From: Sporopachydermia quercuum
Lineage: Eukaryota
Direction: 5' to 3'
NCBI GenBank assembly: GCA_001599295.1
Contig: BCGN01000007.1
Coordinates: 446,433-510,432, forward strand
DNA length: 64,000 bases
Below are positions 20,430 to 63,951 of the stretch, in pieces (positions within the stretch are counted from its first letter, which is position 1; each line of letters begins with the position of its first letter). Both the position numbers and the translations under genes were made by a program. The notes beneath the pieces were generated by a model, which worked only from the letters and a program-made list of their open reading frames with translations, was not told the origin of the DNA and did no database searches.

Positions 20430-21184
20430 ATGGCTTCAGAAGACATTTCAACACCTCAAGCAACTTTGGAGATGGAGGCAAGAGCCCTTCAGAGCTTACG
20501 ACGGAAAACTGACGCTATTCTCGCTACGAATCCCCTGTTTTTCGACCATCGCAAGAAAAGAAAACTTACACAGCTGTCGGCAAGAGAAAAGAAATTAAAG
20601 CTTCTTTTGCAGAGCAAAAAAGATACCAGCAGTCACAACCTTTCTAACGATCATCAACAGAACGATGGTACTGACAGTTTACTGAAAAATGACAGTGATA
20701 AACTAGTCGCTGGTGGTAGCGGTTCGGTGCCATTACCAGGATCAGCGTCTGATGCGTCTGATGCTACTGATCCAAGTTTAGGCGGGAAAGCAAAGGTGCC
20801 CCCGTCGTTGGTGAACTCTACCACCTTGAAATCCTTGGGTTCTGTTTCTCTTACGCCAGAACAACAGGCAAACTTGCTAAGTAGTGCGAAAAACACCCGG
20901 AAGGACTACCAATCCTGTGTCAGGTTCTGGAACAAATGGTGCGACGATTGGTACAGCCACTTGCCAGAGCCCTTCCGGTATCATGTCACAAGCATTAAAA
21001 CCCTGGCATTTCTTACTTATTTGGTGAACAGAGGGAACGACAAAATACAGCCGCCTATTGATTTGGCAGAAATCGAGATGGCAAACGCTGCCAAAAAGGA
21101 TAAACCCGGCTTAGATACCGATGACAAACTCACTGATCTGGGGGATGAACCCGATGTGTCGTTAATAGATGCTACTATCAAACA

Positions 21185-21215
<31 letters not shown>

Positions 21216-22049
21216 CAATCACAACAGCAACAACAGCAAGAGCAACTACTGCAACAATTACAGCACCAGAACCAAAATCAGTTACAACAACATCAACTAC
21301 AACAGCAACAACCACCCCAGAAATTCAAACCATACGCTTACTCCACCATAGACGGCTACCTTTCTGCACTGGTAGATCTATACTATAACCAAATAGACAC
21401 TGCTATTGAGAACATGATGAACACTTGGGATCCTCCCCGGGACGAGAAAGTGATTTATTTCATGGATATTCTCAAACATGAACACGGTCCTGTTCGTAGT
21501 AAGAAAAGGAAACAGAAAGACGAGTCGAAGCTAGAAGATAAGCTGGGAGATAGCGGCGATCTTGCCTCTGGGCAGGATTTGCTCGGAATTGATGCTCATG
21601 AGAGTAAAGGAAAAGGCATGCGTATGAAATCCCGTCGTTCGCGCAGCGTGAAGTCGAAACTGGACTCCCAGCACGATGTTTTGGCATCTCCTTCCCAAGC
21701 TCAAGCAGTTGCCCAGGCGCAGGCGCAGGCCCAAGCCCAAGCGCAGGCGCAAGCTCAGGCCGTTGCCCAGGCACAAGCTCAAGCCCAAGCCCAATCGCAA
21801 GCATTCAATATCAATACCAATCCCAATATGCCAATGATGCCTTTTACCTCAAAAGAAGAATACGAAAAGTATATGATGCATTACCCTATGTATATGCCGA
21901 TGATGAACATTTCTCCTCAACTGCAAATGCCAATGATGTCAGTTCAGCAAATGGGGAGTAATGTAAATGTGTCTAATTCACCATCAGGACAATCGTCATC
22001 TGCTTCTAATCAGACTTCACATAGACGTCAACAGTCTGATTTTTTCTAG
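20430..22049 (+). CDS. Crypton/Ndc10/Gcr-like N-terminal (integrase SAM-like) domain protein with polyQ and QA repeats; putative transcription regulator
   Basis: ATG at 20430 in A-rich context. Pattern 'AKNTRKDYQSCVRFWNKWC..YHVTSIKTLAFLTYLVNR..YSTIDGYLSALVDLYYNQ..PPR' resembles the N-terminal domain of fungal Crypton recombinases. Basic NLS-like clusters (RKKRK, SKKRK). Confidence 0.7.
21183..21320 (+). repeat. CAG/CAA polyglutamine tract
   Basis: Encodes QQQQQQQQQPQQSQQQQQQEQLLQQ... Confidence 0.9.
21696..21803 (+). repeat. (Gln-Ala)n dipeptide repeat
   Basis: CAG GCG/CAA GCC units encoding QAQAVAQAQAQAQ... Confidence 0.9.
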
Positions 22050-30481: not shown

Positions 30482-32014
30482 AATTGGAGATTACTTATAC
30501 AAATGGTTCGCAAGCAAAAAGTCCAAAGTCGAAGTCCGACGAGCAAATTTTGTTGTTGACTGCAAACTGAATGATTGATTAATTGATTGATTGATTGATC
30601 CTATTGTTCTTGTTATCAATCCCATAAGTACTTGGCAACTGTNTCGTTCTTATCCCTAGATACACTGAGAAACAACTCCAGACAACACTTTCTGAAGAAT
30701 CAACACAGTAAGTCAAATCCCTGTATTAATACAACGATCAGCTCTTTTTCACGTATATATCTATACCTGTCCACGCAATCAACAACCCCAACAATTGGTC
30801 AAATCAGTACAACCTTTTCTCATTTCCAACTGAACCGAACAACCGGCGTCGAAGTCCCATAAGAAATGCTTCTATTCTTTATGATCCTAGACACCGCCTA
30901 ATCGGACAATAAGTTAATTACTATAAGATTATTTAGTATACTAAGATAAGCTAATGTCCGGTAAGCTTAATGCTAGCTGTGAAAGAAGTCTCATTTAAGA
31001 AACTACAGGTTAATACTGGAATAAATAAGTATTTTACTACTGTTTTTCAATATATTCTATCTATTGATTTATAATACAAGACTTGAAAGATTATTATGCC
31101 TTTTTTAGGGAAGTAAAACATATAATATAACATTGTAGCAGTTCCCTTGTCGCTAGGAGCATGTATCGTATATATCCCAATTAGGTCCACATGCACCTAA
31201 AATGATCACTAATTAACGATTCTCATTGTTCAACTTGTAGACTGCGTTGTTAAAAGAAATAATGATTTTGGCTTCTTTAGTAGGAAATAGAAAGGGATGA
31301 TTTTGGAAAGGAAAGTGGTGGGTTCTTTAAACCTTTTATTAAAAGAGCAAACTTCAAAATAACAATGAAACCAAACTGTTTGTTTCAACATAGACCCTCA
31401 AAGACCAAAGCGGGCAGTTTTACTACCTTTCCGCTTTAACTATCAAAATTTCAGACAAATATACAAATGCAGCCTTAAATAGTATATAAGAATAAAAGAC
31501 ATTTTAACTCAACGTTTTTGCACTTTTCAAGAAATATCATATTCTATTTTCCACCCAACTAACAGAACTCTCTTCGCAGTCATCATATCTTCTCCGTTCT
31601 GTTCTCGCCCACCCACAACTCAAGTCTTCGTATTGTATCCTATTTAGGAAACATTTCATTCTTATCACTTATCTCCCGATACACCCCTACCTTTTTACTA
31701 ATTTCTTTATGTGGTTTGTGATTTTTTCAGTTAATCAACCACAAACTAGAAAAAGCTCTTAGTAATCAAAAACAAATCACTTTTCTGTTCGCCGTTCTTT
31801 CTTTATTTGTATCTTTCGTTTGCTATCCATTAGTAGAAACTACTTTATGAAGGAACTATTATTGTAACTGATAACAACTTTTTGAGTAATATTTAGTTGC
31901 TTCAAATATTTATCAAACAGTTCCAACGAGGACATTTTGGTACATCTCTCAGTAGATTGAGTACATTTCTAAGCATAACTCTCAGTATATCTCAAGCGTT
32001 TCACTGTTGACATA

Positions 32015-32983
32015 ATGCTGGCAGTTTCCAGTTCGAATTCACATCTACCGGCAGCTGAACCAGAGCACTGTCCAGGACCAGAATCAGAATCAGCAGGCAA
32101 AGATGACGCCTGTCAGGGATGCCCAAACCAAGCTATATGTGCATCTCAAACGCCAAAAGGACCCGATCCTGATATTCCTGCTATTACAGAAAAGCTAGCA
32201 CCCATAAGGCATAAAATCTTAGTGCTGAGTGGTAAAGGAGGTGTAGGCAAATCAACATTCACATCTATGCTAGGATGGGCGTTTTCCTCGGACGAAAACT
32301 CAGAAGTTGGAATCATGGATTTAGATATATGTGGACCTTCAATGAGTAAAATCATGGGCACTGAAGGAGAGCAAATTCACTCATCAAACTCTGGATGGAC
32401 ACCTGTGTATGTAGCTGACAATTTAGCCATGATGAGTATCAGTTATATGCTTCCAAACGAAGAAGATGCTATTATTTGGAGAGGGGCTAAGAAGAATGGT
32501 CTGATCAAGCAGTTTCTGCGTGATGTAGAATGGGGTCCTTTAGATTATTTGATCGTAGATACACCACCGGGAACATCAGATGAACATTTGAGTGTGCACC
32601 AGTATTTGAAAGGCTCTGGTATTTCAGGAGCAGTTATCATCACGACACCGCAGGAAGTTGCATTGTTAGACGTTAGAAAGGAGATCAATTTTTGTTTCAA
32701 GGCAGGAATTCCAGTGATAGGCCTAGTGGAGAATATGAGTGGATTTATTTGTCCTAGCTGTAAAGGGCAAAATGATATCTTTATCCCAACAACCGGTGGA
32801 GGTGAGGGATTAGCTAAAGAAATGAAGATTCCATTCCTGGGTAAAGTTCCTTTAGATCCAAGAATTGGAAAATGTTGTGATGAGGGTGAATCATTCTTAG
32901 ATGAATATCCTGATTCTCCTTCTTGTAGCGCTATTTTAGATATCATTACTAGTATTAAGAAGGAGTTAGGTGAAGAGAGGTAA
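32015..32983 (+). CDS. NBP35: Cytosolic Fe-S assembly P-loop NTPase
   Basis: N-terminal C-x13-CQGC-x5-C motif, [19 protein letters not shown] and [11 protein letters not shown]. Confidence 0.96.
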
Positions 32984-33744
32984 TTCAAATGTGTGTATAT
33001 AATGGATTGTATTTTATTTGACACTTTCTCATAACAGGAAGACTATACAACCATGGCATCTGATGATAGGCATTATCCAACCTCCATTTTGACTGCCAGA
33101 ACAGTATAAACAGTAGTATGTCTCACTAATTTTATCATCAGAACTCTCTCCCGATGACTTTTGGTTGGAGGATAAACAATGCATGGGATTCAATGNCAAA
33201 AAAATTGGGTAGTTCTATAAAGGTATACACAAGATATAGTATTATCCACCACCAAAGTTCAACGTTGAGTTGTCCACAGCACAGTCCATAACAAAATGAT
33301 AGTAAGTGGTCTAGTTGATGGTGGTCTAGTTGATGAACTATGCCATTGGAAGAAACAGTACTCAGGCATGATTTACTTAATAATGCATTTTCAATCCTTA
33401 TCTATTGTTTTCCATTTGACAGCTACATGGGAAATCGAAACAGTTCTTTCAATTGGTGCCGCTTAACTGATTTACAATAAAATGTCACTTAACTCACTTG
33501 ATATAGTCATATGCTTCGATTCATGCAGCGATGAACTTTCAAAATTGTAGATACAATAATGTTCGTTTACAGCTACAAAGTATTNTATAATGGAAAGGAA
33601 TATAATTATACCAATTTTCATAGTGACTAGTATCACATCAATGTTCCACCCCATATTTTTCAACATTGAAGTCGATGTAATGAATGCATCATAACCCATT
33701 TCACCACTGTGAATCCCCAAAAACTATAATTAACATCAGCATCA

Positions 33745-35940
33745 TCATACAATTGCCAGACTTTCATACAAGTACTCTGTACCAACAGCCGAAAGCTTCT
33801 TTCTAAGCTCATTAGAACTCAACTCAAGCTTCAAAGCATCTCTAAAGTTAACTTTGGCTTCATAATTCACTAGATCATCTCTGTACAACCTTTCGAGCCT
33901 CAACTTATCAATTATATAATCCACAACGTAANCTTTCATTATAGTCAATCCTGCATTTTCATATCTTCCTTTAAGCTTACAAGCTTTACTGAATCGTTCT
34001 AATTTTTTCAAAGAAACAACAGCAGAATATATCAGGGAATCAAACTGCAAAACCAACTCCTGGATGGTATTTTCGTTGATTTTATATTGTGGCGATCGGA
34101 ATTTCCTTAGCTTAGCATAATTGGCAAAAACATCTCCACCAACAGACCATAGACCATTGCTCACATGAACAGCGTAAGGTTGTCTGAATCTGTTAATGGT
34201 AGCTTCCATTTTGTCTAGTGACTCGTTGTTATCATTTATCACCAATTGAGGACCCGTATGGTGAATCAGAATATTATTAGCATAATTGTAGTTACCTGCT
34301 TGCAGATAGTATTCCAAACTGTTATCGTATTCTTCTTTATAGGTATACAGCACGCCAATAGCATTAGTTACCACTGGCTCGGGGATTTTCAGTACTTGGG
34401 TTAAACTGGTGATTGCAAAACCTATATTGGTTTCAGCAGAGTCAAAGCTGATAGCAACAAACCTGTTGATGATCTCAGTGATTATTTTCTCAGTAGCAGC
34501 ATCAGAAGACAAGTGAGACGCTACGAAAATAGCTTCAGCCCACATTCTGTTATTGAGCAGAGAGTAACATAGATTACCGCTTAACCAGCGATTTATGTCA
34601 TCTAGGCTTCCTACTGTCGCTTTGTCAATGTGAGATGCTGACTCTTCTGTTACTACAACAGGTTTCAGCAGGTGATAGGTAATCCATTGGCTGAAAATCC
34701 CCATCAGGGTGTTGGGATTAGAAACGGCGAGCCAATCGTTCGTGAAAGCATGAAGGTCATATTTCTGGTTGACTCTAGAACAGAACAGCGAGAGAAGAAG
34801 CACGCAGGTTCTATCGATTTCTTTCTGGACAGCTTTTTGACCACTGATTAGCTCTACGCTATCAACCCCAGTTTTCCGGACTTCAGCAAGGAAGTTTTTC
34901 ATAAAGACATTGAATCCAGACTTTCTACCTATTTCCGTGAAACGAAGTTGTAATCCTAACACAAATTTCCAATTCAATTCATCCCAGTTCATCTCTTTGT
35001 CTGTATAATCAACTTTACCGGAGAACAACGAGAATATCCTCCTAAGATTCAATGGAAAGATATTTCCAGCTGTGCTTTTGATCTGGTTCACCCAGGCTTC
35101 TAATCTTTGATACGTACTAGCTGTTAAACCATCCGAAAGACTCTTTTCAATATGTAAAGATCCTCCAAATGTAAGACTGTGTAAGTACTGAATAAGCACA
35201 GCCAAATCAGGTGTACCTAGATCTAAAGCTTTGTCAGTAGCTTGAGACAATTGGAAACCACAAATATAATAGAAGATTTTATCCACATTACTCAGATCAT
35301 CTTTTTGAAGTAGTTCTAGTGTCTCTGATTGCGTGGAAACCTCCAACCAGTTGATGATAGCTTTCTTCGTTCTCAGGTCAGACTCTTCCTGTGTTAAATC
35401 AGTCGTTAGACCGTCTTCTAATTCACTAAGCAGTTTTAACAGGTCCCAGAAATATGTTATAATACTAGATTTGTTTTCCAGACTGATTTTTGCATTGCCC
35501 GAGACTAACTTGCTAAGCAATTGACTAGATCCTTTCTTAGACAGTCCAGCAATCTTCGGNAATTCATTTGAGCTTCTGGTGAGAAATTTTGCCAACTGGA
35601 GTTTCGTTCCCAAACATGCAAGTACCAATTCTTTCTCCTTATCAAGAGCTTTATTGATGTCTTTCAAGGTCACTCGAGGTACTATTGCATCAGTATATAT
35701 CAATTTGCCGTCACCAGACCATCGTAAACCTGAACAGGATTGGATCTTCTCTCTCTTCAACTTCTTGGCTATTCGCTGACTCTCTAAACCACTCTCCAAG
35801 TTAAAGCTATCTTGTTTCAGAAGAGCACCTGGAATAGTTAAACCGTCTAAATCATCATCACCAATGCCATAAAATACTGAGGCTGCTTTGGAAGCAGGTT
35901 TGCTACCAGCGGATAGGTTTTTAATCCAAATACTTGCCAT
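33745..35940 (-). CDS. NUP145: Nucleoporin Nup96/Nup145C (Y-complex ACE1 protein), stand-alone
   Basis: Colinear Nup96 motifs: 'GLRWSGDGKLIY' (Sec13 blade), 'FWDLLKLL', 'IFYYICG..LSQATDKAL..G.PDLAVLI', 'LRRIFSLFSG', 'LNWKFVLGLQLRF', 'WAEAIFVASHL', 'LKIP' and 'WSVGGDVFANY'. 731 aa, about the size of the C-terminal fragment only. Confidence 0.85.
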   Translation of the reverse strand: MASIWIKNLSAGSKPASKAASVFYGIGDDDLDGLTIPGALLKQDSFNLESGLESQRIAKKLKREKIQSCSGLRWSGDGKLIYTDAIVPRVTLKDINKALDKEKELVLACLGTKLQLAKFLTRSSNEXPKIAGLSKKGSSQLLSKLVSGNAKISLENKSSIITYFWDLLKLLSELEDGLTTDLTQEESDLRTKKAIINWLEVSTQSETLELLQKDDLSNVDKIFYYICGFQLSQATDKALDLGTPDLAVLIQYLHSLTFGGSLHIEKSLSDGLTASTYQRLEAWVNQIKSTAGNIFPLNLRRIFSLFSGKVDYTDKEMNWDELNWKFVLGLQLRFTEIGRKSGFNVFMKNFLAEVRKTGVDSVELISGQKAVQKEIDRTCVLLLSLFCSRVNQKYDLHAFTNDWLAVSNPNTLMGIFSQWITYHLLKPVVVTEESASHIDKATVGSLDDINRWLSGNLCYSLLNNRMWAEAIFVASHLSSDAATEKIITEIINRFVAISFDSAETNIGFAITSLTQVLKIPEPVVTNAIGVLYTYKEEYDNSLEYYLQAGNYNYANNILIHHTGPQLVINDNNESLDKMEATINRFRQPYAVHVSNGLWSVGGDVFANYAKLRKFRSPQYKINENTIQELVLQFDSLIYSAVVSLKKLERFSKACKLKGRYENAGLTIMKXYVVDYIIDKLRLERLYRDDLVNYEAKVNFRDALKLELSSNELRKKLSAVGTEYLYESLAIV

Positions 35941-36530
35941 TGATGGTCACTTTGGATTGAGATTCGATTAGAATGCCCACAGCGTGTCGGACCGAGCCAA
36001 GATTAACTAACAAACAGCCAATGATATTACCGTCAATTAGTGTATACGTACTACAGCACAAGAAAAACAGTCAATGATACCTAAACTGGTTTAAAACTTT
36101 GATACAATCAATAATAGCCGATTTGACTGTCTAAATGGATCAATGATTTGGAATGTTTGTTTATGTTTAGTTCTTGTGGTGAGAAATGAGAGGAGATACG
36201 ANGTTGTTATTACTGATAGGGTCTGGGATATGGGACGAGACGGAGCATTGTAATATGCAGATATCTAGGTATCTGGAAGATATATGAACATTTAGAATTA
36301 GTAGTTTAATAGCTGATATAATCTATCTATATTATTATTAGATTCTCTGATACATTTTCCTAATATTACAGTTTTACCTCTATCTTCTATCTGCAGAAAT
36401 AATCTTTTATCTCTGGTTCCGAATACCTATCCCATCTCAAATAATAACATGCTTACGTAATACAAAATCCGCACCGTCCCATCACAGCCCCCTCTACACA
36501 TTCGTTTCCACAAATATAGCTTCACCTACT

Positions 36531-36570
36531 AAAAATTTTTTATTTTATATCTATCACCTTTATCATCTCT
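36531..36570 (+). promoter_or_regulatory. RRPE-like (AAAAATTTTT) and PAC-like (TCATCTC) elements upstream of RPA190
   Basis: Motifs are seen directly and are typical of ribosome-biogenesis promoters. Confidence 0.45.
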
Positions 36571-36960
36571 CGTTTTCATATTTCATTATCCGTATTTACT
36601 AACAAAACTTGCAATGAATTCTGAAATTCAGAGTTAATCGAATGGTAGATATAACTGGCAACTAACTGGAACAAGAAGTGGACACCAGTACCTTATCAGA
36701 AGACCATCATTGGATATTTGTTACCAATCGTCAGTTAGGACAAAGCCAGAATAAGATAGGCCCGCCTGTCTGCTGAATGAACTATTATTCCTATTTTTGT
36801 TGACATTATCATTGGCTATACTATAACTAGTTTGAGCATTAATCATCATTGATCGTCAGCAGTTATAGCATTGTATTATCCTACTCCTACCCTTGTACTG
36901 TGCAAGCATTCAGTATCCCACTTAGAATCTCCTTTCTGATTACAGTATTTATATAAGATC

Positions 36961-39900
36961 ATGGATATCGCTAAACCCATTGGCACAGAAATCACATCAG
37001 TGGATTTTGGGTTTCTCACGTCCAAAGAGATCAGACATTTATCCACCAAACAAATCACCAATCCCCAAGTATTCGATTCCCTTGGAAACCCAACTCCTTC
37101 TGGTTTATATGATTTGGCATTAGGTGCTTTCCTAAGAAATCTCTGTGCCACCTGTGGACTTGATGAAAAGGCTTGTCCCGGTCATTTAGGCCATATCGAA
37201 CTACCAATCCCGGTATATAATCCATTATTTTTCAGCCATATGTATGTCTTGCTTAGATCGGTGTGTGTCCATTGCTATGATTTCCGACTTTCACGATCTG
37301 AAACACATAAGTATATGTGTAAACTACGCCTTTTACAGTACGGATTAGTTTTAGAGGCCGAAGAAATAGACAATTTTCGCGTTAAGTCTGAGGACGACAC
37401 TTCCGATATTGGTTCCGAGGCTGAAGAAGCCGAAGATGATGGAGATATCCGAATGAGTTCTCGGAATTCTGGAAACGATAAGGATACAGAAACTCTATTC
37501 AAACTAAGAGAAGCCTTTGTTATTACCGCTATTGGCAAAGCAATTGCTGACGGCAGAACTTCCGAACTTGGTACTATCTCTTCCGTTCTAAACGAAGAAC
37601 GGAAACAGCTTATCCATGATTTCTACAAATCATTAATTTCTCGTACCAGATGCTTCAACTGTGGCTTATTTTCTCCGGGNTTCAGAAATGACGGTTATTC
37701 TAAAATCTTCTTAATGCCTCTAAAAGAAAAACAACAAGCACACAATAGAGCGAAAGGTGTCCATTCCGGTTTAAAAGCTGGTGCGGAAACTATTTTCCAA
37801 ACTCCATCAACAACATCCAAATACGTCATTTCTTCCGAAATCAGAAATCTGTTCCGCAATCTGTTCCGAATTCAACCGGATCTACTCAAATTCCTCTTCA
37901 ACTCAAGACCGAAAGCTACCAAACCGGTTTCTCCCGACATGTTCTTTATCTCATATGTAGTTGTTCCTGCTACTCGGTTTAGATTACCATCCAAGCTAGG
38001 AGAAGAAATCCATGAGAACTTCCAAAATGAGCTGTTATCGAAGATTTTAACAACCTCTTTACGAATCAGAGATATCAACGATACCATTGCGGGTTTTGTC
38101 AATGAAAAGAACGTTGCTGTTGAACGTTCTAATGCTTTTAATCAGCTTATGAATGCTTTCGTCACGCTTCAAAACGATGTGAACTCCTTCCTCGATTCTA
38201 CCAAAGCTCAAGCTCCTGCTGGAAAATTACCTTTGCCTGGTGTTAAACAGGCTTTGGAGAAGAAAGAAGGTCTTTTCCGAAAGCACATGATGGGTAAACG
38301 AGTGAATTACGCTGCTAGATCGGTCATTTCTCCTGATCCCAACTTGAGCACCAATGAGGTTGGTGTCCCACCAGTGTTTGCTGTGAAATTGACATACCCG
38401 GAACCAGTCACAGCTCACAATGTAGCGGAATTGCGTCAAGCTGTAATCAATGGTCCTACAGTTTGGCCTGGTGCTACCCAGATCCAAAGGGAAGATGGTT
38501 CTATTGTCTCCTTAACTGCTATGACGTTAGAACAGCGAACAGCTCTTGCCAACCAGTTATTGACTCCTACAGCTGGAGCTCCTCCTGGTGTGAACAAGAA
38601 AGTGTATCGTCATATCAAAAACAACGATGTGGTTTTAATGAATAGACAGCCTACTCTGCATAAGGCTTCCATGATGGGTCATAAAGTAAGAGTGTTGCCT
38701 GGCGAGAAGACATTGAGACTTCATTACGCTAATACTGGTGCCTACAACGCTGATTTCGATGGTGATGAAATGAATATGCATTTCCCTCAGAACGAGGCCG
38801 CTAGAGCGGAAGCCTTGTTTTTGGCTAATACCGACTCTCAATATCTAACTCCTACATCTGGTAAGCCCTTGAGAGGTTTGATTCAGGATCACATTACTGC
38901 TGGTGTATGGTTGACTAATAAAGACTCATTTTTTGACAGAGAAACGTATCAACAGCTTGTTTATTCCTGCTTGAGACCTGAAGATGGCCATACTTCTGCC
39001 GGACGGTTGAAGAGCTTACCACCAGTTATAGTGAAACCAAAGTCTCTATGGACGGGAAAGCAAGTCATATCTACAGTTTTATTGAATATCCAGCCTCTGG
39101 AACAACCTGGTTTGTTTCTCAAGAGCAAAAACAAAGTGAAAAATGAGTATTGGGGTTCTAAATCAGAAGAGAACACTGTTCTGTTTCATAACGGCGCTTT
39201 GCTCCAAGGTATTCTCGATAAGTCTCAATACGGTGCTGCTGATTATGGGTTGGTACATGCCGTCCATGAAGTTTATGGGCCAGCTATCGCCGGACAGCTT
39301 CTTTCAGCTCTAGGAAGATTATTCACAACTTACATGCTCCGAACAGGTTTCACCTGTGGTATGGATGATTTAAGACTCACAGAAGACGGCAATCGCTTAC
39401 GACAGGATATTCTTGCTAAAGCCGATACAGCAGGTGGTGCAGCAGCAGCAGAAGTTGTTGGCCTTGTTGAAGAAGAAGCCAAGAAAAACCCTGCCGAATT
39501 AAAGCGTCGTCTTGAGGAAATCCTCCGTGATGACGGTAAATTAGCTATTCTAGATGCCATTTCCCAGTCTAAGGTCAATGCTGTCTCATCCGAGGTTGTC
39601 TCCCGATGTGTNCCGTCCGGTACTCTCAAGAAATTCCCTGCCAACTCTATGCANCTTATGGCGTTGTCCGGTGCTAAAGGGTCCAATGTAAACGTGTCCC
39701 AAATCATGTGTCTTCTCGGACAGCAAGCTTTAGAAGGCCGCAGGGTCCCAGTTATGGTCTCGGGAAAGACCCTCCCTAGTTTTAAACCATTAGAAACAAA
39801 TGCTCGGGCTGGCGGTTATATCCGAGGCCGGTTTTATTCTGGTATTAGACCTCAGGAGTATTATTTCCATTGTATGGCTGGCCGAGAAGGTCTGATTGAT

Positions 39901-41847
39901 ACCGCCGTTAAAACATCCCGTTCAGGATATCTTCAGAGGTGTCTTATTAAACAGCTTGAAGGTGTTCATGTTGGATACGATTCTACAGTTAGAGACAACG
40001 ATGGAATGGTGATTCAATTTTTGTATGGTGGAGACGCAGTTGACGTCACCAAGGAATCGTATTTGAATCAGTTTGGTTTCTGTGCCGATAATTATGGCGC
40101 CTTACTGGGAAAACATCATCCAGAACGAATAGAAGCATTAAATACTGAAGATGCTATTGGATACGGCAAAAAGGTCAAGAAACAACTGAAAAAGAACCCG
40201 AACGCTGAAGTTGACCCAATTCTAGCGAAATTCAACCCTGGAAAATATTTAGGAGCTGTTTCCGAAAGATTCCAAACCGAACTGGATGCTTTCATTAAGG
40301 GAAGTGGTTCAAGATTCAGTAAAAAGGGCTCTCATGGTTCACTCACTGATAAGAAGTTCAAAGCATTGATGCAATTGAAGTATCAACAATCTCTAGTTAA
40401 TCCTGGTGAAGCCGTTGGCATTATTGCTGCTCAATCCATTGGTGAACCTTCTACTCAAATGACCCTGAACACATTCCATTTCGCTGGTCACGGTGCTGCT
40501 AATGTTACATTGGGTATTCCTCGTATGAGAGAAATTATTATGACAGCTTCTGCTTCCATCAAGACGCCCCAAATGACTTTACCAATTCTTGAAGACGTCA
40601 CTGATGAACAAGCCGACAGTTTCTGTAAGTCTGTGGCTAGAATTGTTATCTCAGAGCTTATTGATAAGGTCACTGTTGTGGAAACTTCAGGAACTTCAGA
40701 AGATGGAACAACAGCTAGACAATACACAGTAAAGGTTCAATTCTACACGCGGGAAGAATATGAAAACGAGTACGATGTCGATTCCAAGCAATTAGAAGGC
40801 GTTATTACTAGTAAATTGCTTACACAACTTGAAAAGCAATTGAAGCTTGAATTGAAGAAACAAAAGAAATCCAATGCCGAACTTCCAACCATTGGAAGAG
40901 CTAGTAGAAAGGTTCAACAAACAAGCGGGAAGATAGATGATGGTGATAATGATGATGAGCGACAAAAGACCACTGGTAAACAGTCTGTTTCTTATGATGA
41001 ACCTGATGAGGAGGAACTTGAAGCTATGAAGAAGGCTGAAGTAAGCGATAGTGAAGAAGGGGAATTAGAAGATAGTTCTGCTTCCGAAGCGTCGGACTCG
41101 GACTCGGACTCAGACCCAGATTCCGATTCCGATTCCGATTCTGAAGATACTGAGGCCTCCGATGCTGTCTCTAAAGCTGCCAGAGAACGGGAAATCGCTG
41201 TAATTGGCTCCCACTCTTTCATCACCAAGTATAAATTTGATGACAAAGCAGGTGAATGGTGCGAATTTCAATTGGAATTACCTGCCGGCAGTCAGAAATT
41301 GCTTATGGTGAACATCATTGAAACAATCTGTCAATCAGTAATCGTCAGGGAAATCCCTCATATTGGTAGGTGTTTAAGACCTAGCAGCCAAGGCAATAAA
41401 CGTGTTTTACTCACTGAAGGTGTCAACTTCAAAGCTATGTGGGATCAAGACGATTTCATTAACGTAGATGGCATCAGATCTAACGATATTGCCGCGGTAT
41501 TGAGAACTTATGGTGTTGAAGCTGCCAGAAACACCATTGTTAATGAAATCAACAATGTGTTTTCCACTTACGCTATTACCGTCAACCTTAGACATTTGGA
41601 TCTTATTGCTGATTTGATGACAAGAGAAGGTAGCTATTTACCTTTTAATCGTCAAGGTATTGATTCATGTACATCACCATTCAAGAAGATGAGTTATGAG
41701 ACAACCTGTCAATTTCTAACTAAAACCGTATTAAATGGTGACAGTGATGAATTGGATAGTCCTAGTAGTAAGATTGTGGTTGGTGGATTAGCAGATGTTG
41801 GTACAGGATCATTTGGTGTCTATACAGGAAGTATCGGAAGTAATTAA
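36961..41847 (+). CDS. RPA190: RNA polymerase I largest subunit A190
   Basis: MDIAKPIGTEITSVDFG start, Zn motif CATC..CPGHLGH, catalytic NADFDGD, TLNTFHFAG and an acidic expander region. Confidence 0.98.
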   Translation: MDIAKPIGTEITSVDFGFLTSKEIRHLSTKQITNPQVFDSLGNPTPSGLYDLALGAFLRNLCATCGLDEKACPGHLGHIELPIPVYNPLFFSHMYVLLRSVCVHCYDFRLSRSETHKYMCKLRLLQYGLVLEAEEIDNFRVKSEDDTSDIGSEAEEAEDDGDIRMSSRNSGNDKDTETLFKLREAFVITAIGKAIADGRTSELGTISSVLNEERKQLIHDFYKSLISRTRCFNCGLFSPXFRNDGYSKIFLMPLKEKQQAHNRAKGVHSGLKAGAETIFQTPSTTSKYVISSEIRNLFRNLFRIQPDLLKFLFNSRPKATKPVSPDMFFISYVVVPATRFRLPSKLGEEIHENFQNELLSKILTTSLRIRDINDTIAGFVNEKNVAVERSNAFNQLMNAFVTLQNDVNSFLDSTKAQAPAGKLPLPGVKQALEKKEGLFRKHMMGKRVNYAARSVISPDPNLSTNEVGVPPVFAVKLTYPEPVTAHNVAELRQAVINGPTVWPGATQIQREDGSIVSLTAMTLEQRTALANQLLTPTAGAPPGVNKKVYRHIKNNDVVLMNRQPTLHKASMMGHKVRVLPGEKTLRLHYANTGAYNADFDGDEMNMHFPQNEAARAEALFLANTDSQYLTPTSGKPLRGLIQDHITAGVWLTNKDSFFDRETYQQLVYSCLRPEDGHTSAGRLKSLPPVIVKPKSLWTGKQVISTVLLNIQPLEQPGLFLKSKNKVKNEYWGSKSEENTVLFHNGALLQGILDKSQYGAADYGLVHAVHEVYGPAIAGQLLSALGRLFTTYMLRTGFTCGMDDLRLTEDGNRLRQDILAKADTAGGAAAAEVVGLVEEEAKKNPAELKRRLEEILRDDGKLAILDAISQSKVNAVSSEVVSRCXPSGTLKKFPANSMXLMALSGAKGSNVNVSQIMCLLGQQALEGRRVPVMVSGKTLPSFKPLETNARAGGYIRGRFYSGIRPQEYYFHCMAGREGLIDTAVKTSRSGYLQRCLIKQLEGVHVGYDSTVRDNDGMVIQFLYGGDAVDVTKESYLNQFGFCADNYGALLGKHHPERIEALNTEDAIGYGKKVKKQLKKNPNAEVDPILAKFNPGKYLGAVSERFQTELDAFIKGSGSRFSKKGSHGSLTDKKFKALMQLKYQQSLVNPGEAVGIIAAQSIGEPSTQMTLNTFHFAGHGAANVTLGIPRMREIIMTASASIKTPQMTLPILEDVTDEQADSFCKSVARIVISELIDKVTVVETSGTSEDGTTARQYTVKVQFYTREEYENEYDVDSKQLEGVITSKLLTQLEKQLKLELKKQKKSNAELPTIGRASRKVQQTSGKIDDGDNDDERQKTTGKQSVSYDEPDEEELEAMKKAEVSDSEEGELEDSSASEASDSDSDSDPDSDSDSDSEDTEASDAVSKAAREREIAVIGSHSFITKYKFDDKAGEWCEFQLELPAGSQKLLMVNIIETICQSVIVREIPHIGRCLRPSSQGNKRVLLTEGVNFKAMWDQDDFINVDGIRSNDIAAVLRTYGVEAARNTIVNEINNVFSTYAITVNLRHLDLIADLMTREGSYLPFNRQGIDSCTSPFKKMSYETTCQFLTKTVLNGDSDELDSPSSKIVVGGLADVGTGSFGVYTGSIGSN

Positions 41848-46494: not shown

Positions 46495-47753
46495 ATGTCG
46501 ACTACTGTAGAAAAAGTATGTTCAACCATAAGAAGAGTTCATCAGTGTCATTTGAGTATCCAGTTTGCTGTAAGTCACAGTTATCATGACTAACCAACTT
46601 TATAGATTAAAGAAATAGAGCTGGAGATGTCTCGTACCCAGAAAAACAAAGCCACAAGTTTCCATCTGGGTCAACTGAAGGCTAAGCTTGGTAAGTATAA
46701 TACAGAGGTCGCAGCAGTATACTTTATGTCCCACCACTAACAATTACAGCAAAATTAAGAAGAGAACTACTGGCACCTTCTGGTGGCTCTGGCGGTGGTT
46801 CAGGTGGTGCAGGCTTTGATGTAGCTAGAACAGGTGTGGCTTCCGTAGGATTTATTGGTTTCCCTTCCGTAGGTAAATCAACTTTACTATCAAAGTTAAC
46901 TGGCACCCATTCTGAAGCTGCTGCCTACGAATTCACAACTTTGACCACCGTTCCTGGTACTATTAAATTTAAAGGTGCCAAGATCCAAATGCTTGATTTG
47001 CCTGGTATTATCGAAGGTGCCAAAGATGGTAAAGGTAGAGGTAAACAAGTTATTGCTGTAGCTAGAACTTGCAACCTGATTTTCATTGTGTTGGATGTCA
47101 ACAAACCTTTGATTCATAAGCAGATCATTGAGAAGGAATTGGAAGGTTTCGGCATTCGCATCAACAAAGTTCCTCCTAATATAGTTTTCCAAAAGAAAGA
47201 ACGAGGTGGTATCAATATCACCAATACTGTGCCATTAACACATTTAGATCCTGGTGAGATCAAAGCTGTTATGGGTGAATATAGAATCAACTCTGCTAAT
47301 ATTGCTTTCAGATGTGATGCCACTGTTGATGACTTGATTGATGTTTTAGAAGCTCAAAACAGAAAATATATTCCGGTGATTTATGTCCTTAATAAGATCG
47401 ATTCTATCTCTATAGAAGAATTAGATCTACTATACAGAATTCCCAACGCTGTACCCATTTCCTCGGAGCATGGTTGGAATCTTGATGAGTTATTGGAAGA
47501 AATGTGGAAGAAATTGAACTTGGTAAGAGTGTACACCAAACCAAAGGGTCGTATGCCTGACTATACGGATCCTGTGGTGTTGAGGAAGAGTGCATCAACT
47601 GTTGAGGACTTTTGTAATCAAATTCATAAGTCGCTGGTGGAGGATTTCAAAACTGCCGTGGTTTATGGTACGAGTGTCAAGCATCAACCTCAATACGTTG
47701 GTTTATCTCATACGTTGGAGGACGAAGACGTTGTTACTATTTTGAAGAAGTAA
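46495..47753 (+). CDS. RBG1: DRG-family ribosome-interacting GTPase; join(46495..46515,46606..46690,46750..47753)
   Basis: Spliced N-terminus [43 protein letters not shown], plus [21 protein letters not shown] and a TGS domain. Confidence 0.96.
46516..46605 (+). other. RBG1 intron 1 (90 nt)
   Basis: GTATGT...GACTAAC(46588)...TAG. Confidence 0.9.
46691..46749 (+). other. RBG1 intron 2 (59 nt)
   Basis: GTAAGT...CACTAAC(46735)...CAG. Removal restores the conserved KLAKLRRE. Confidence 0.9.
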
Positions 47754-61882: not shown

Positions 61883-63951
61883 CTAGTTCAAAGATTTTTG
61901 ATCATCAAACCTCAAATCCCAACCAATCTTTGGTCCTAACCTAGGTAGAACTTCGGCCACACTTTGAACATCTTTATCACCTCTACCAGAAACACAGATC
62001 ACCAAGTTTTGGTCTTTGCTCATAGTCTTAGCTAATTGAACAGCTCCATAAACAGCATGTGATGATTCTAAAGCAGGAATAATACCCTCAAATTGAGATA
62101 ACCATTTGAAGCCTAATAAAGCATCGGCATCAGTAGCAGCTACAAATTGAGCTCTGCCACTGGCTTTCCAGGCTGCGAGTTCAGGTCCAACACCAGGATA
62201 ATCTAAACCAGCAGATACTGAATGAGTGTCTTGAATTTGTCCATCTTTATTCTGTAGAACGTATGTCTTCACGCCATGGAATACACCTTTAACACCAGCT
62301 GTCAACGTAGCTGAGTGTCTATCAGTATCGAGACCATCGCCACCAGCTTCAACACCAAGTAACTTGACACTCGAATCTTTCTCAAATGGTGAAAACATAC
62401 CTGTGGAGTTACTACCACCACCAACACATGCAACCACAGCATCAGGAAGTTTGCCATCGTTCAAAGCTTTGAATTGTTCCTTTGTCTCATTACCGATAAC
62501 TGATTGGAAGGTTCTAACTAGAGTAGGGTAAGGATGAGGTCCAATAGCAGAACCTACAACGTAATGTGTAGTAGCTAGGTTAGAAACCCAGAATCTGAAA
62601 GCTTCTGAAGTTGCATCACGTAAAGTTTGAGTACCGGCTGTGATAGGAATAACCTTAGCGCCTAGTAATTTCATTCTAAATACGTTCAAAGCTTGTCTTC
62701 TTACGTCTTCAGCTCCCATAAACACTGTACATTCCAAACCAAATTTAGCTGCTGCAGTTGCAGTTGCAACACCATGTTGACCTGCCCCTGTTTCAGCAAT
62801 AACCTTGTTTTTACCTAGTCTCTTAGCAATCAATACTTGAGCCATAGCGTTATTGATCTTGTGAGAACCAGTATGGTTTAAATCTTCACGTTTTAACCAG
62901 ATCTTAGCCCCACCAGAAAATTCAGTTAATCTCGGAGCTTCATGTAAAGATGAGGGTCTTGACATATATGGATAGTATGATTTTAATTCAGCCCAGAACT
63001 CCGGATCAGCAGTTGCTGATTCAAAAGCTCTTTCGAGTTCTAATAAACACGTATGCATAGCTTCGGGAACGTATTGACCACCAAATTCACCAAATCTGGG
63101 GTTATATTTGGAACTCACATCAGCATCTGGCTTGTTTTCCAGTTCTTCAGTTGCTGCTGCACTGCCAGCACTATTACTGCTATCAATAATCTTTGGTGAC
63201 TCACCACCTTTAAGAATATCTTCAACAAAAGCTTTAGCAGCTTCTTGCCTGCTTCCTTCTGGTGCTTGTTCAATGGTGGTAACAAGCTTAGAGCCAATGA
63301 CTACACCATCAGCAGCAGCAGCAAATTTAAGGAAATGCTCTCTAGTACTAACCCCAAAACCAACAGCAAGAGGAATCTCCTTGGTGAACCTNCTGACATG
63401 TCGAACAAGCTCAGGTACACTGTCACTGACAGTTTGTAAAGCACCAGTAGTAGCCATACGGGATACAACGTAGATGAATGAATCAGCGATTTCTGCAAGT
63501 ACTTTCAATCTATCATCTTCAGTGGATGGAGCCACTAAAGGAATGTATGATATACCAACAGCGGCACATTGACCTCTAAATTTGATAGCTTCCTCAGGTG
63601 GCAAATCAACAATGATAAACCCATTTGCGCCAGCATCAAATGAATCTTGAATCATTTTTTCTTCTCCGTAATTAAGAATAGGATTATAATACCCCATAAG
63701 AACAATAGGTACGGTTACACCAGAAGCACGAGCCTTTCTAACTAATTCCAAACATAGTGGTACATTTACACCGTTTGCCAAAGCAACGTTATTTGAATGC
63801 TGAATAGTGGGTCCGTCAGCAATTGGATCTGAGAATGGAATACCTAATTCAATAACATCAACACCACCGGCTTGTAATCCTTGAAGAATCGGCACTGTCT
63901 CTACAATAGTAGGATGACCAGCGGTAACAAAGGTGACTAAGGCCGTGCGAC
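61883..63951 (-). CDS. TRP5: Tryptophan synthase (alpha-beta fusion); 3' exon only, first exon lies beyond the window
   Basis: [42 protein letters not shown] and ACVGGGSN motifs. The exon begins after TCCTAAC(63974-63968)...CAG(63952). Confidence 0.97.

Follow-up and report, generated by a model that had tools for sequence, protein, structure and literature searches.

Does the Nup96/Nup145C gene at this locus stand alone, without the Nup98 half, and, if so, at what point did the ancestral fused gene come apart? In animals and fungi, Nup98 and Nup96 are made from one gene by autoproteolysis, according to the portion of a review drawn on here (PMC8685260), and the conservation of this coupling is a standing question. 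The explanation favoured below, with a probability of about 0.8, is that of an ordinary Nup145C/Nup96 gene translated from its own ATG, the N half being gone from the locus and the start lying most probably inside the N-terminal region.

Identity and surroundings of the gene

The window (the whole stretch of DNA that was analysed, 64 kb in length) contains the gene and its two neighbours at the following positions.

33745..35940, minus strand: stand-alone NUP145C/Nup96 gene, 731 codons and a stop (open reading frame list, Pfam, PDB matches, AF2 and Foldseek)
34360..35280, minus strand: Pfam Nup96 domain (PF12110), residues 221-527, part of the alpha-solenoid
32015..32983, plus strand: NBP35, an ATPase of cytosolic Fe-S cluster assembly, which meets the Nup145C gene tail-to-tail (Pfam ParA/NUBPL)
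36961..41847, plus strand: largest subunit of RNA polymerase I (RPA190-type), divergent neighbour (Rpb1 domains 1-5, profile matched from residue 10)

Translation of the reading frame gives a product of 731 amino acids with the N-terminal sequence MASIWIKNLSAGSKPASKAASVFYGIGDDD, and its two X residues arise from single N bases at 35560 and 33932. Pfam Nup96 (PF12110) is matched over residues 221-527 with 67 bits, the cut-off being 25 (E 1.9e-18), the match spanning positions 2-291 of the 295 in the profile, and Nucleoporin2 (PF04096) was not found in the 731-residue protein in a Pfam search at E<=1, as expected from the initial annotation, which had recognised the Nup96 part alone in this frame. 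A PDB sequence search with the product led to human Nup96 and yeast Nup145C. The AF2 model of the 731-residue protein (pLDDT 76.9, pTM 0.75) retrieved Nup96/Nup145C-type chains of NPC outer-ring models at Foldseek ranks 1-11, including 8tie_c, 4xmm_B and 3iko_B, with E-values from 2.5e-13 to 6.9e-9. The predicted product is, on sequence and model, Nup145C/Nup96, and its predicted role is that of a scaffold nucleoporin of the Y-complex (outer ring), where Sec13, Nup84, Nup85 and Nup120 would be its partners.

Relatives were gathered by a full HMMER scan at E<=0.001 (n=66); comparison of the reading frame with 8000 word-sharing protein candidates gave no homologue at E<=0.001, and metagenomes scanned for its close relatives yielded 153 pattern matches, 0 of which were confirmed by tblastn. 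Fusion to the N half is found in 51 of the 66 relatives, which carry the site HF|S-x-[WYF]-[GS] and have post-cleavage parts of 669-955 amino acids as against 731 here.

The product of the 3' neighbour is 68-77% identical to named NBP35 homologues. NBP35 presumably lies tail-to-tail with NUP145 in S. cerevisiae as well (YGL091C/YGL092W), an arrangement for which a literature search pairing YGL092W with YGL091C found no paper; the same orientation in the window suggests that the gene occupies the original locus. The divergent neighbour at 36961..41847 is taken by us to be RPA190, a name that follows the initial annotation and the yeast protein.

Absence of the GLFG and autoprotease half from the locus

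The region upstream of the gene contains two features.

35947..35970, minus strand: in-frame stops upstream of the ATG, TGA at 35949-35947 (codon -3) and TAA at 35970-35968 (codon -10)
35941..36960, no strand: divergent intergenic spacer of 1020 bp with a single N at 36202 (three-frame translation and HMM scans)

The ATG of the Nup145C frame is read at 35940-35938 on the minus strand, in agreement with the start at 35940 given earlier, and the TGA and TAA reported 3 and 10 codons ahead of it are indeed in frame. The distance to RPA190 had been described as about 1 kb of divergent promoter with no place for autoprotease or GLFG exons, a description with which the present results agree. Stops occur throughout all three frames of the 1020-bp spacer, leaving no open frame, and HMMs of the junction, of the post-cleavage peptide and of the N-terminal-region motifs found no remnant of the N half or of the N-terminal region in it; the N-terminus of the reading frame was never ranked when the same motif HMMs were run against all six-frame peptides. 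Three intron candidates end at 36327, 36273 and 36007, all upstream of in-frame stops, and therefore none of them can add coding sequence.

Searches of the entire 64-kb window were likewise negative for the N half. The best E-value for an autoprotease domain was 4.4, obtained with an HMM from 51 fused relatives against 2574 six-frame peptides, and a motif scan of the six frames found no GLFG; seven scattered matches to [ST]LFG or F[GS]FG were present, without any FG-repeat run. The GLFG repeats, the autoprotease domain and the HF|S site are gone from the locus. The earlier suggestion that independent translation replaces autoproteolysis is thereby borne out at the locus only: with its own ATG and no autoprotease or GLFG coding sequence, direct translation, as predicted from the reading frame, has replaced autoproteolytic release there.

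The N-terminus and the point of separation

Three segments near the start of the protein bear on the point at which the two halves were separated.

35926..35940, minus strand: start codon and residues 1-5, MASIW, in which W5 is the Trp of a Nup85-contact helix (preferred) or belongs to a post-cleavage SIW look-alike
35851..35880, minus strand: residues 21-30, SVFYGIGDDD, a weak match to W-G-L-x-D-E-D or to the S-V-F and D-L-D-x-x-L motifs of relatives
35689..35797, minus strand: residues 48-84, a basic stretch before the DIM (LESQRIAKKLKREK) together with the DIM-like beta segment LRWSGDGKLIY, which presumably forms the blade inserted into Sec13

Residues 48-84 were aligned by an anchored HMM of 15 relatives with an E-value of 0.002 (a score attained by 22 of the 2000 shuffled versions of residues 1-60), and short strands are predicted by AF2 at 72-74 and 80-82 with pLDDT under 50. 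The protein appears to retain a DIM-like segment at about residues 62-84, presumed to insert into Sec13, and it has the alpha-solenoid in full together with the C-terminal end. The DIM anchor stands at residue 73, compared with 139-297 (median 240) after the cleavage Ser in the 15 relatives; the DIM of S. cerevisiae covers 149-183 in the portion of the study cited here (PMC5653651).

Both MASIW at the start and SVFYGIGDDD at residues 21-30 exist in the translation as first noted. The initial annotation went on to locate the fission at the cleavage site or close to it and to propose that the docking peptide had possibly been kept; neither point finds clear support. H-F-S-x-W-G holds without exception in all 41 fused relatives compared, and the query has M-A-S-I-W-I, with Ile in place of the invariant Gly that follows the Trp. 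With a PSSM, SIWIKNLSAGS scores 0.5 bits versus 14.1-37.0 for 36 true sites; judged by these residues, MASIW is not credible as a docking peptide. The second element, SVFYGIGDDD, scores 3.4 bits with the PSSM (p about 0.04-0.05), and YGIGDDD reaches a marginal 2.1 bits (E 0.025) with the HMM of the post-cleavage peptide. Four metazoan-type relatives align YGIGDDD to residues 3 onward of the cleavage product, and in the unaligned motif rows its acidic stretch fits the D-L-D-x-x-L motif of the relatives equally well.

The 57 nt between W5 and G25 were considered as an intron and as an in-frame duplication; the former was rejected for want of GT..AG boundaries at the right place and the latter because the AGTATTT copies are 56 nt apart and hence out of frame.

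Docking was also addressed by complex prediction with ESMFold2, in which residues 1-60 were combined with a stand-in autoprotease domain of another species (P0006 residues 410-561). The resulting score of 0.36, versus 0.00 for the best of 3 controls, amounts to weak support and gives no interface; the runs agreed in at least 48% of the contacts and the partner pLDDT was at least 38. In calibration, 51 of 78 solved complexes and 2 of 108 mismatched pairs attained the mark; passes at a score of 0.60 or less came from only 5 of those 78 and from each of the 4 passing mismatches (of 180). A similar complex is already solved, and the pass may stem from the model's memory of it.

A different placement of the N-terminus is obtained with MAFFT, which sets residues 1-23 (MASIW...SVF) on an internal S-x-D-W-x-x-Q-L ... 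S-x-F motif corresponding to about residues 90-108 of S. cerevisiae Nup145C, the alignment of residues 1-47 to the relatives having no statistical support of its own. In the part of the study consulted, residues 92-99 of S. cerevisiae Nup145C form a helix contacting Nup85 (PMC5653651). W5 precedes the DIM anchor W73 by 68 residues, versus 59-89 (median 67) in 15 relatives. W5 is not selected by the HMM and PSSM of the helix motif, an HMM from four N-terminal regions of the S. cerevisiae type gave 0.9 bits versus 7.9 for the best shuffles, and the best pairwise N-terminal match, P0024, has a p of 0.007 uncorrected for 51 targets. Residues 3-12 are not helical in the AF2 model (pLDDT about 28), and a PDB search with residues 1-126 returned only chance-level matches to NusA (E 0.28). 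Since the pre-DIM region is short and the spacing from W5 to the DIM is as in the relatives, the start of the gene probably lies inside the old disordered N-terminal region, at the Nup85-contact helix, and not at the cleavage site, in which case the canonical docking peptide SIWGLxDEDD would have been lost.

The host is an early-branching budding yeast (Saccharomycotina) that is predicted to make Nup145C from its own ATG and not from a Nup145/Nup98-96 polyprotein. NBP35 has stayed tail-to-tail 3' of the gene, and the upstream half of the ancestral fusion is gone from the locus. The reading frame now most probably opens at the counterpart of the short Nup85-contacting helix of S. cerevisiae, with about 60 disordered residues before the DIM, and a separate GLFG/autoprotease nucleoporin would be encoded elsewhere in the genome.

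That the real gene is a fusion, misjoined to RPA190 in the window through an artefact of assembly or annotation, is exceedingly improbable. The window does contain 47 single N bases, including the one at 36202 in the spacer; these are, however, single letters and not gaps, and stops are present in all upstream frames. One contig of run X1 (study P1, 2016) crosses 30650-39600 with 0 differences and one of run X2 (study P2, 2023) crosses the same interval with a single T insertion behind 36535, the depths of the two runs being 97 and 33 with 0 substitutions across the interval; the runs are not fully independent, as both may be the source of the window sequence. A corrected assembly with a fused upstream half, which would have overturned the earlier proposal, was not seen in these two unbroken contigs. 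Runs X4 and X5, from other organisms of study P2, matched at 80% likeness no more than brief conserved stretches of NBP35 and RPA190 and are uninformative on gene order. It is also quite unlikely that the gene is an additional, 5'-truncated copy of an intact fused NUP145 residing elsewhere, given a scaffold part of full length, with 731 intact codons and the Nup96 fold, and the tail-to-tail NBP35 that, presumably as at S. cerevisiae NUP145, suggests the original locus. A possible, though on balance doubtful, explanation is that the Nup145N half was deleted outright and its function is covered by Nup116/Nup100-type paralogs, which have GLFG repeats and a non-cleaving autoprotease fold; an orthologous gene for the N half would then be absent from the genome. 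S. cerevisiae, which has two such paralogs, tolerates the loss of Nup145N, and no remnant of the N half was found at or near the locus within the 64-kb window; the weak docking signal, if real, argues instead for a retained partner. A start inside a dispensable N-terminal region is, moreover, what would be expected of the end-point of a deletion and not of a precise split, and S. cerevisiae can do without this region of Nup145C in the portion of the study cited (PMC5653651).

Somewhat less probable than outright loss is fission at the autoproteolytic junction itself, with SIW and/or YGIGDDD retained as a peptide that docks in trans to a separate autoprotease domain. SIW stands exactly where the cleavage products of the 51 fused relatives begin, and S[IVT]W falls within the first ~10 residues by chance in a fraction of 0.00145 of 20000 shuffles, the pattern having been chosen post hoc. 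YGIGDDD fits the pattern aromatic-G-aliphatic-x-D-acidic-acidic at the E-value given above, at the place where the four metazoan-type relatives align, and the starts of basidiomycete Nup96 described below offer a precedent. These points, together with the ESMFold2 result, are to be set against the low score of SIWIKNLSAGS with its missing Gly and against the equal fit of the acidic stretch to D-L-D-x-x-L. As the DIM anchor is at 73 instead of 139-297, a split at the junction would further require about 65-225 residues to have been deleted in addition, the EKAYEP and DW helix motifs among them; and a weak complex pass, here with the domain of another species, is more often wrong than right unless the pairing was likely beforehand. 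The broader proposition, that several independent splits occurred in fungi (in Basidiomycota with a conserved MARFGL docking peptide, and in this yeast) and that a degenerate or displaced SIW ... YGIGDDD still tethers the yeast Nup145C to a separate autoprotease in trans, is unlikely. A start inside the N-terminal region continues to be preferred.

Comparison with known systems

A stand-alone Nup145C in a budding yeast is real and only modestly surprising, since plants and many basidiomycete fungi also split Nup96. A natural split in the Saccharomycotina, taken together with the basidiomycete database cases, suggests that fungi, too, can in nature do without the coupling of Nup98 and Nup96. 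Comparative material on the N-terminal elements that survive is also gained, with the DIM-like segment apparently kept, the Nup85-contact helix probably so, and the docking peptide at best a remnant in the window protein. If tethering in trans were true, the locus would be a natural experiment on why autoproteolysis, and not separate genes, is widely kept. The outcome is of use for annotation and of modest evolutionary interest, with no new mechanism.

The window protein has in common with S. cerevisiae Nup145C and human Nup96 the PF12110 domain, an ACE1-type alpha-solenoid and, apparently, a DIM-like segment preceding the solenoid, and its length of 731 amino acids is similar to the 712 of PDB chain 7n84_c; however, identity to the two proteins is only about 16-29%, and the autoprotease domain, the HF|S site and the GLFG half are lacking at the locus. 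The pre-DIM region has about 60 residues in the window protein and 148 in S. cerevisiae, as given in the part of the study referred to (PMC5653651). In the same portion, Nup145C without its N-terminal region, combined with plasmid-borne Nup145N, rescues an S. cerevisiae nup145 null, and removal of the entire Nup145C N-terminal region leaves growth unimpaired as long as Nup145N is provided separately (PMC5653651). Split expression in the laboratory is described, in the source passages drawn on, as viable in both model yeasts; those engineered splits are laboratory constructs, whereas the window gene is a natural arrangement. Literature searches, within the collection covered, found no paper on Nup145C and Nup145N as separate genes, and none joining Nup96, Nup98 and Basidiomycota.

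The stand-alone Nup96 proteins of Basidiomycota in NCBI annotation resemble the window protein in having PF12110, their own Met and no PF04096. The set considered comes from Microbotryomycetes (Rhodotorula, Microbotryum, Sporobolomyces) and Agaricomycetes (Mycena, Coniophora), and the motif HF[ST].[WYF]G is absent from all 54 of its Nup96-only proteins (Nup96 entries alone, 461-1469 amino acids). A start of the form M-[ATVG]-[RK]-F, as MARFGLxDSD or MARFRAY, occurs in 35 of the 54, and in 21 of the 54 the start is ...FGL with acidic residues or serines after it. Basidiomycete Nup96 thus combines a start that looks like a docking peptide with a long acidic N-terminal region, mostly within a total of 860-1000 amino acids, whereas the window protein has a short N-terminal region and no clear docking peptide, only SIW matching. 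In plants, NUP96 (Arabidopsis MOS3/SAR3 type) is encoded by a gene separate from NUP98 in the portion of the review cited (PMC8685260); the likeness of the window gene to this arrangement, in a different kingdom, is one of description only.

A stand-alone Nup96/Nup145C gene

The ORF under study is a stand-alone Nup96/Nup145C gene, as the initial annotation had observed. The ORF and its divergent neighbour are as follows.

33745-35940, minus strand: Nup145C/Nup96 ORF, 731 codons, beginning MASIWIKNLSAGSKPASKAASVFYGIGDDD
From 36961, opposite strand to the ORF: RNA polymerase largest subunit gene, Rpb1 domains 1-5, N-terminus complete

The start codon (ATG, 35940-35938) is preceded by in-frame stops at 35949-35947 (TGA) and 35970-35968 (TAA), the next other Met of the ORF occurs only after about 300 residues, and the 1020-bp spacer up to the RNA polymerase gene carries stops in all three frames, which bears out the earlier description of an own ATG, a closed upstream frame and a divergent spacer of about 1 kb. 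The 64-kb window also carries 47 isolated single N bases, including 35560 and 33932 within the ORF and 36202 in the promoter, which resemble masked positions, ambiguous or heterozygous, and not gaps.

The Pfam profile Nup96 (PF12110) matches residues 221-527 (67 bits; cut-off 25), and Nucleoporin2 (PF04096) was absent from the ORF even at E<=1, in agreement with the claim that only the Nup96 part is encoded. A sequence search of the PDB retrieved chains of yeast Nup145C as well as human Nup96, the latter at E 4.9e-7. In Foldseek, the AlphaFold2 model (49 sequences; mean pLDDT 76.9, pTM 0.75) came closest to Nup96/Nup145C chains from pore models of frog, human, Dictyostelium and yeast (E 2.5e-13 downward), with 8tie_c, 4xmm_B and 3iko_B among the matches. 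Judged from these profiles and the predicted fold, the product is a genuine full-length Nup96/Nup145C scaffold; its 731 residues are a normal size for Nup145C, since the post-cleavage parts of fused relatives measure 669-955 aa.

When 1.84 billion representatives were scanned in full with HMMER, the ORF gained 66 matches at E<=0.001, the best of which (E 4.6e-14) is a fragment without Met having just 26% identity, so that no sister sequence is present among these representatives. The cleavage pattern HF|S-x-[WYF]-[GS] occurs in 51 of the 66; among the 26 analysed with Pfam, 15 carry PF04096 and PF12110 and 11 carry PF12110 alone. Across the aligned fused proteins (n=41), HFSxWG does not vary at H, F, S, W or G. 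The neighbouring NBP35 shows at most 77% identity to any database protein, and its best named matches (Trichomonascus, Kockiozyma, Lipomyces, Tortispora, Sugiyamaella and Nadsonia) point to an early-branching budding yeast with no proteins of its own in the collections searched. NBP35 (YGL091C) and NUP145 (YGL092W) are presumably convergent neighbours in S. cerevisiae, like NBP35 and the ORF here, in which case the ORF would occupy the original NUP145 locus.

The N-terminal half at the locus

An autoprotease-domain HMM built from 51 fused relatives and run with all filters off against the 2574 six-frame peptides of the window did not find the domain (best E 4.4). GLFG and FG-repeat runs were absent from every frame of the window, and HMM scans of the spacer detected no remnant of the cleavage junction or of the Nup145C N-terminal motifs. 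Three intron candidates 5' of the ORF end at 36327, 36273 and 36007, all ahead of the in-frame stops, and thus add no coding sequence. In each of two sequencing runs, a single contig spans 30650-39600 with 0 substitutions: that of run X1 (2016, study P1, depth 97) and that of run X2 (2023, study P2, depth 33), the latter with one T inserted behind 36535. As both runs derive from one organism and may be the source of the window itself, their agreement indicates reproducibility, not independence. The extra T in X2, relative to the window and X1, reflects a different homopolymer length within the promoter spacer.

The ATG with its upstream stops, together with the lack of an autoprotease domain or GLFG repeats in the window, upholds the core proposal that the protein is here translated independently instead of being released by autoproteolysis, which is considered well supported (probability about 0.8).

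Elsewhere in the window, a DRG/Rbg1-like GTPase gene (46495 onward, plus strand) has, as read by eye over 46495-46800, an apparent first exon of 21 nt, followed by two apparent short introns (at about 46516-46605 and 46691-46749) with GTATGT/GTAAGT, ACTAAC branch sites and YAG ends, canonical signals which indicate that the genome uses short canonical yeast introns. In a TRP5-like tryptophan synthase ORF (61883-63697, minus strand), the match to the alpha-chain profile begins at position 93 of the profile; the 5' part is probably encoded by an exon further upstream or extends past the first ATG on the list. For a 539-aa ORF (20430-22049, plus strand), Pfam gave nothing at E<=0.001.

Position of the ORF start relative to the cleavage product

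The initial annotation had placed the break at or near the HF|S site and read MASIW (residues 1-5) and SVFYGIGDDD (21-30) as a possibly retained docking peptide. Such retention appears unlikely. SIWIKNLSAGS scores 0.5 bits in a PSSM against 14.1-37.0 for 36 true sites, the Gly after Trp, invariant in fused relatives, is Ile in the ORF, and VFYGIGDDDLD reaches 3.4 bits (shuffling p 0.049; p 0.039 with random segments as reference). In its favour, S[IVT]W falls within the first ~10 residues in only 0.00145 of shuffles, a share close to the 0.00155 of a helix pattern devised post hoc in this analysis, and YGIGDDDLD gains 2.1 bits (E 0.025) with a post-cleavage HMM. Complex prediction of residues 1-60 with the autoprotease domain of the relative P0006, used as stand-in, returned 'weak support' (0.36; best of three controls 0.00), a mark reached by 51/78 solved complexes and 2/108 mismatched pairs, but at scores <=0.60 by only 5/78 solved complexes, and each of the 4 mismatches (of 180) that passed did so in this range. 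The runs showed at least 48% contact agreement and a partner pLDDT of at least 38, with no interface reported, and the pass may stem from memorisation by the predictor since a like complex has already been solved.

At the DNA level, the heptamer AGTATTT occurs twice on the minus strand within 35878-35934, 56 nt apart and in different frames, one copy at codons 3-5 (S-I-W) and the other spanning codons 21-23 (S-V-F), coinciding exactly with both look-alike motifs; this is probably chance in AT-rich DNA.

MAFFT aligned residues 1-23 not with MASIW on SIWGL but to an internal S-x-D-W-x-x-Q-L-x-L ... S-x-F motif, which 36 relatives carry at residue 80-212 (median 173) of their cleavage product and S. 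cerevisiae at ~90-108. PMC5653651 describes residues 1-148 of S. cerevisiae Nup145C as unstructured, ~92-99 as a short helix touching Nup85, 149-183 as the Sec13-binding domain invasion motif (DIM) and 184-711 as the helical domain. With a profile of 15 relatives, residues 48-84 of the ORF aligned to the DIM and the basic stretch before it (E 0.002; true score reached by 22/2000 shuffles of residues 1-60), with the anchor at W73 against 139-297 (median 240) in these relatives. A break at the cleavage site is therefore not well supported, and a start inside the old disordered N-terminal region is more likely on these alignments. The preferred placement is at the Nup85-contact helix, suggested by the spacing from W5 to W73 (68 residues, against 59-89, median 67, in relatives) and by a series of weak motifs in collinear order (AGS, SVF, D-L-D-x-L, LESQR), no test confined to residues 1-47 being significant. 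The helix PSSM and HMM failed to pick W5, a 4-sequence HMM gave the ORF N-terminus 0.9 bits where shuffles scored as high as 7.9, and AlphaFold2 left residues 1-72 disordered with no helix predicted at 3-12. The best pairwise alignment (database protein P0024; query 5-60 on 90-138) has p 0.007 by 300 shuffles, uncorrected for 51 targets.

Alternatives and precedents

The arrangement may have arisen by fission of NUP145 with a separate N-half gene, by complete loss of Nup145N or as a truncated paralog of NUP145. Nup98 and Nup96 are described as one gene in animals and fungi and as separate genes in most plants (review, PMC8685260). It is reported that S. pombe is viable with split expression (PMC4483485) and that S. 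cerevisiae Nup145C without its N-terminal region is functional if Nup145N is supplied separately (PMC5653651).

A search with the Nup96-only protein P0033 (Meredithblackwellia; E<=1e-10, lengths 461-1469 aa) matched 54 basidiomycete proteins, for which precomputed lists gave PF12110 in 54/54 and PF04096 in 0/54; HF[ST].[WYF]G was found in none of the 54. An M-[ATVG]-[RK]-F start occurs in 35 and G-L followed by acidic/serine runs in 21. P0033, P0050 and P0187-P0239 (Microbotryomycetes, Agaricomycetes) mostly start with MARFGLxDSD or MARFRAY, and the MARF start reads as a Met set on a sequence that resembles the post-cleavage docking peptide. In the literature library searched, no paper on Nup96 together with Nup98 in Basidiomycota was found, nor an account of such a split; the pattern in these Nup96 entries suggests a lineage-wide natural Nup98-96 split in Basidiomycota. 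Fungi thus already have naturally split Nup96 genes, if only as entries in databases, and the present ORF is a further case, in Saccharomycotina, of this known split-gene arrangement.
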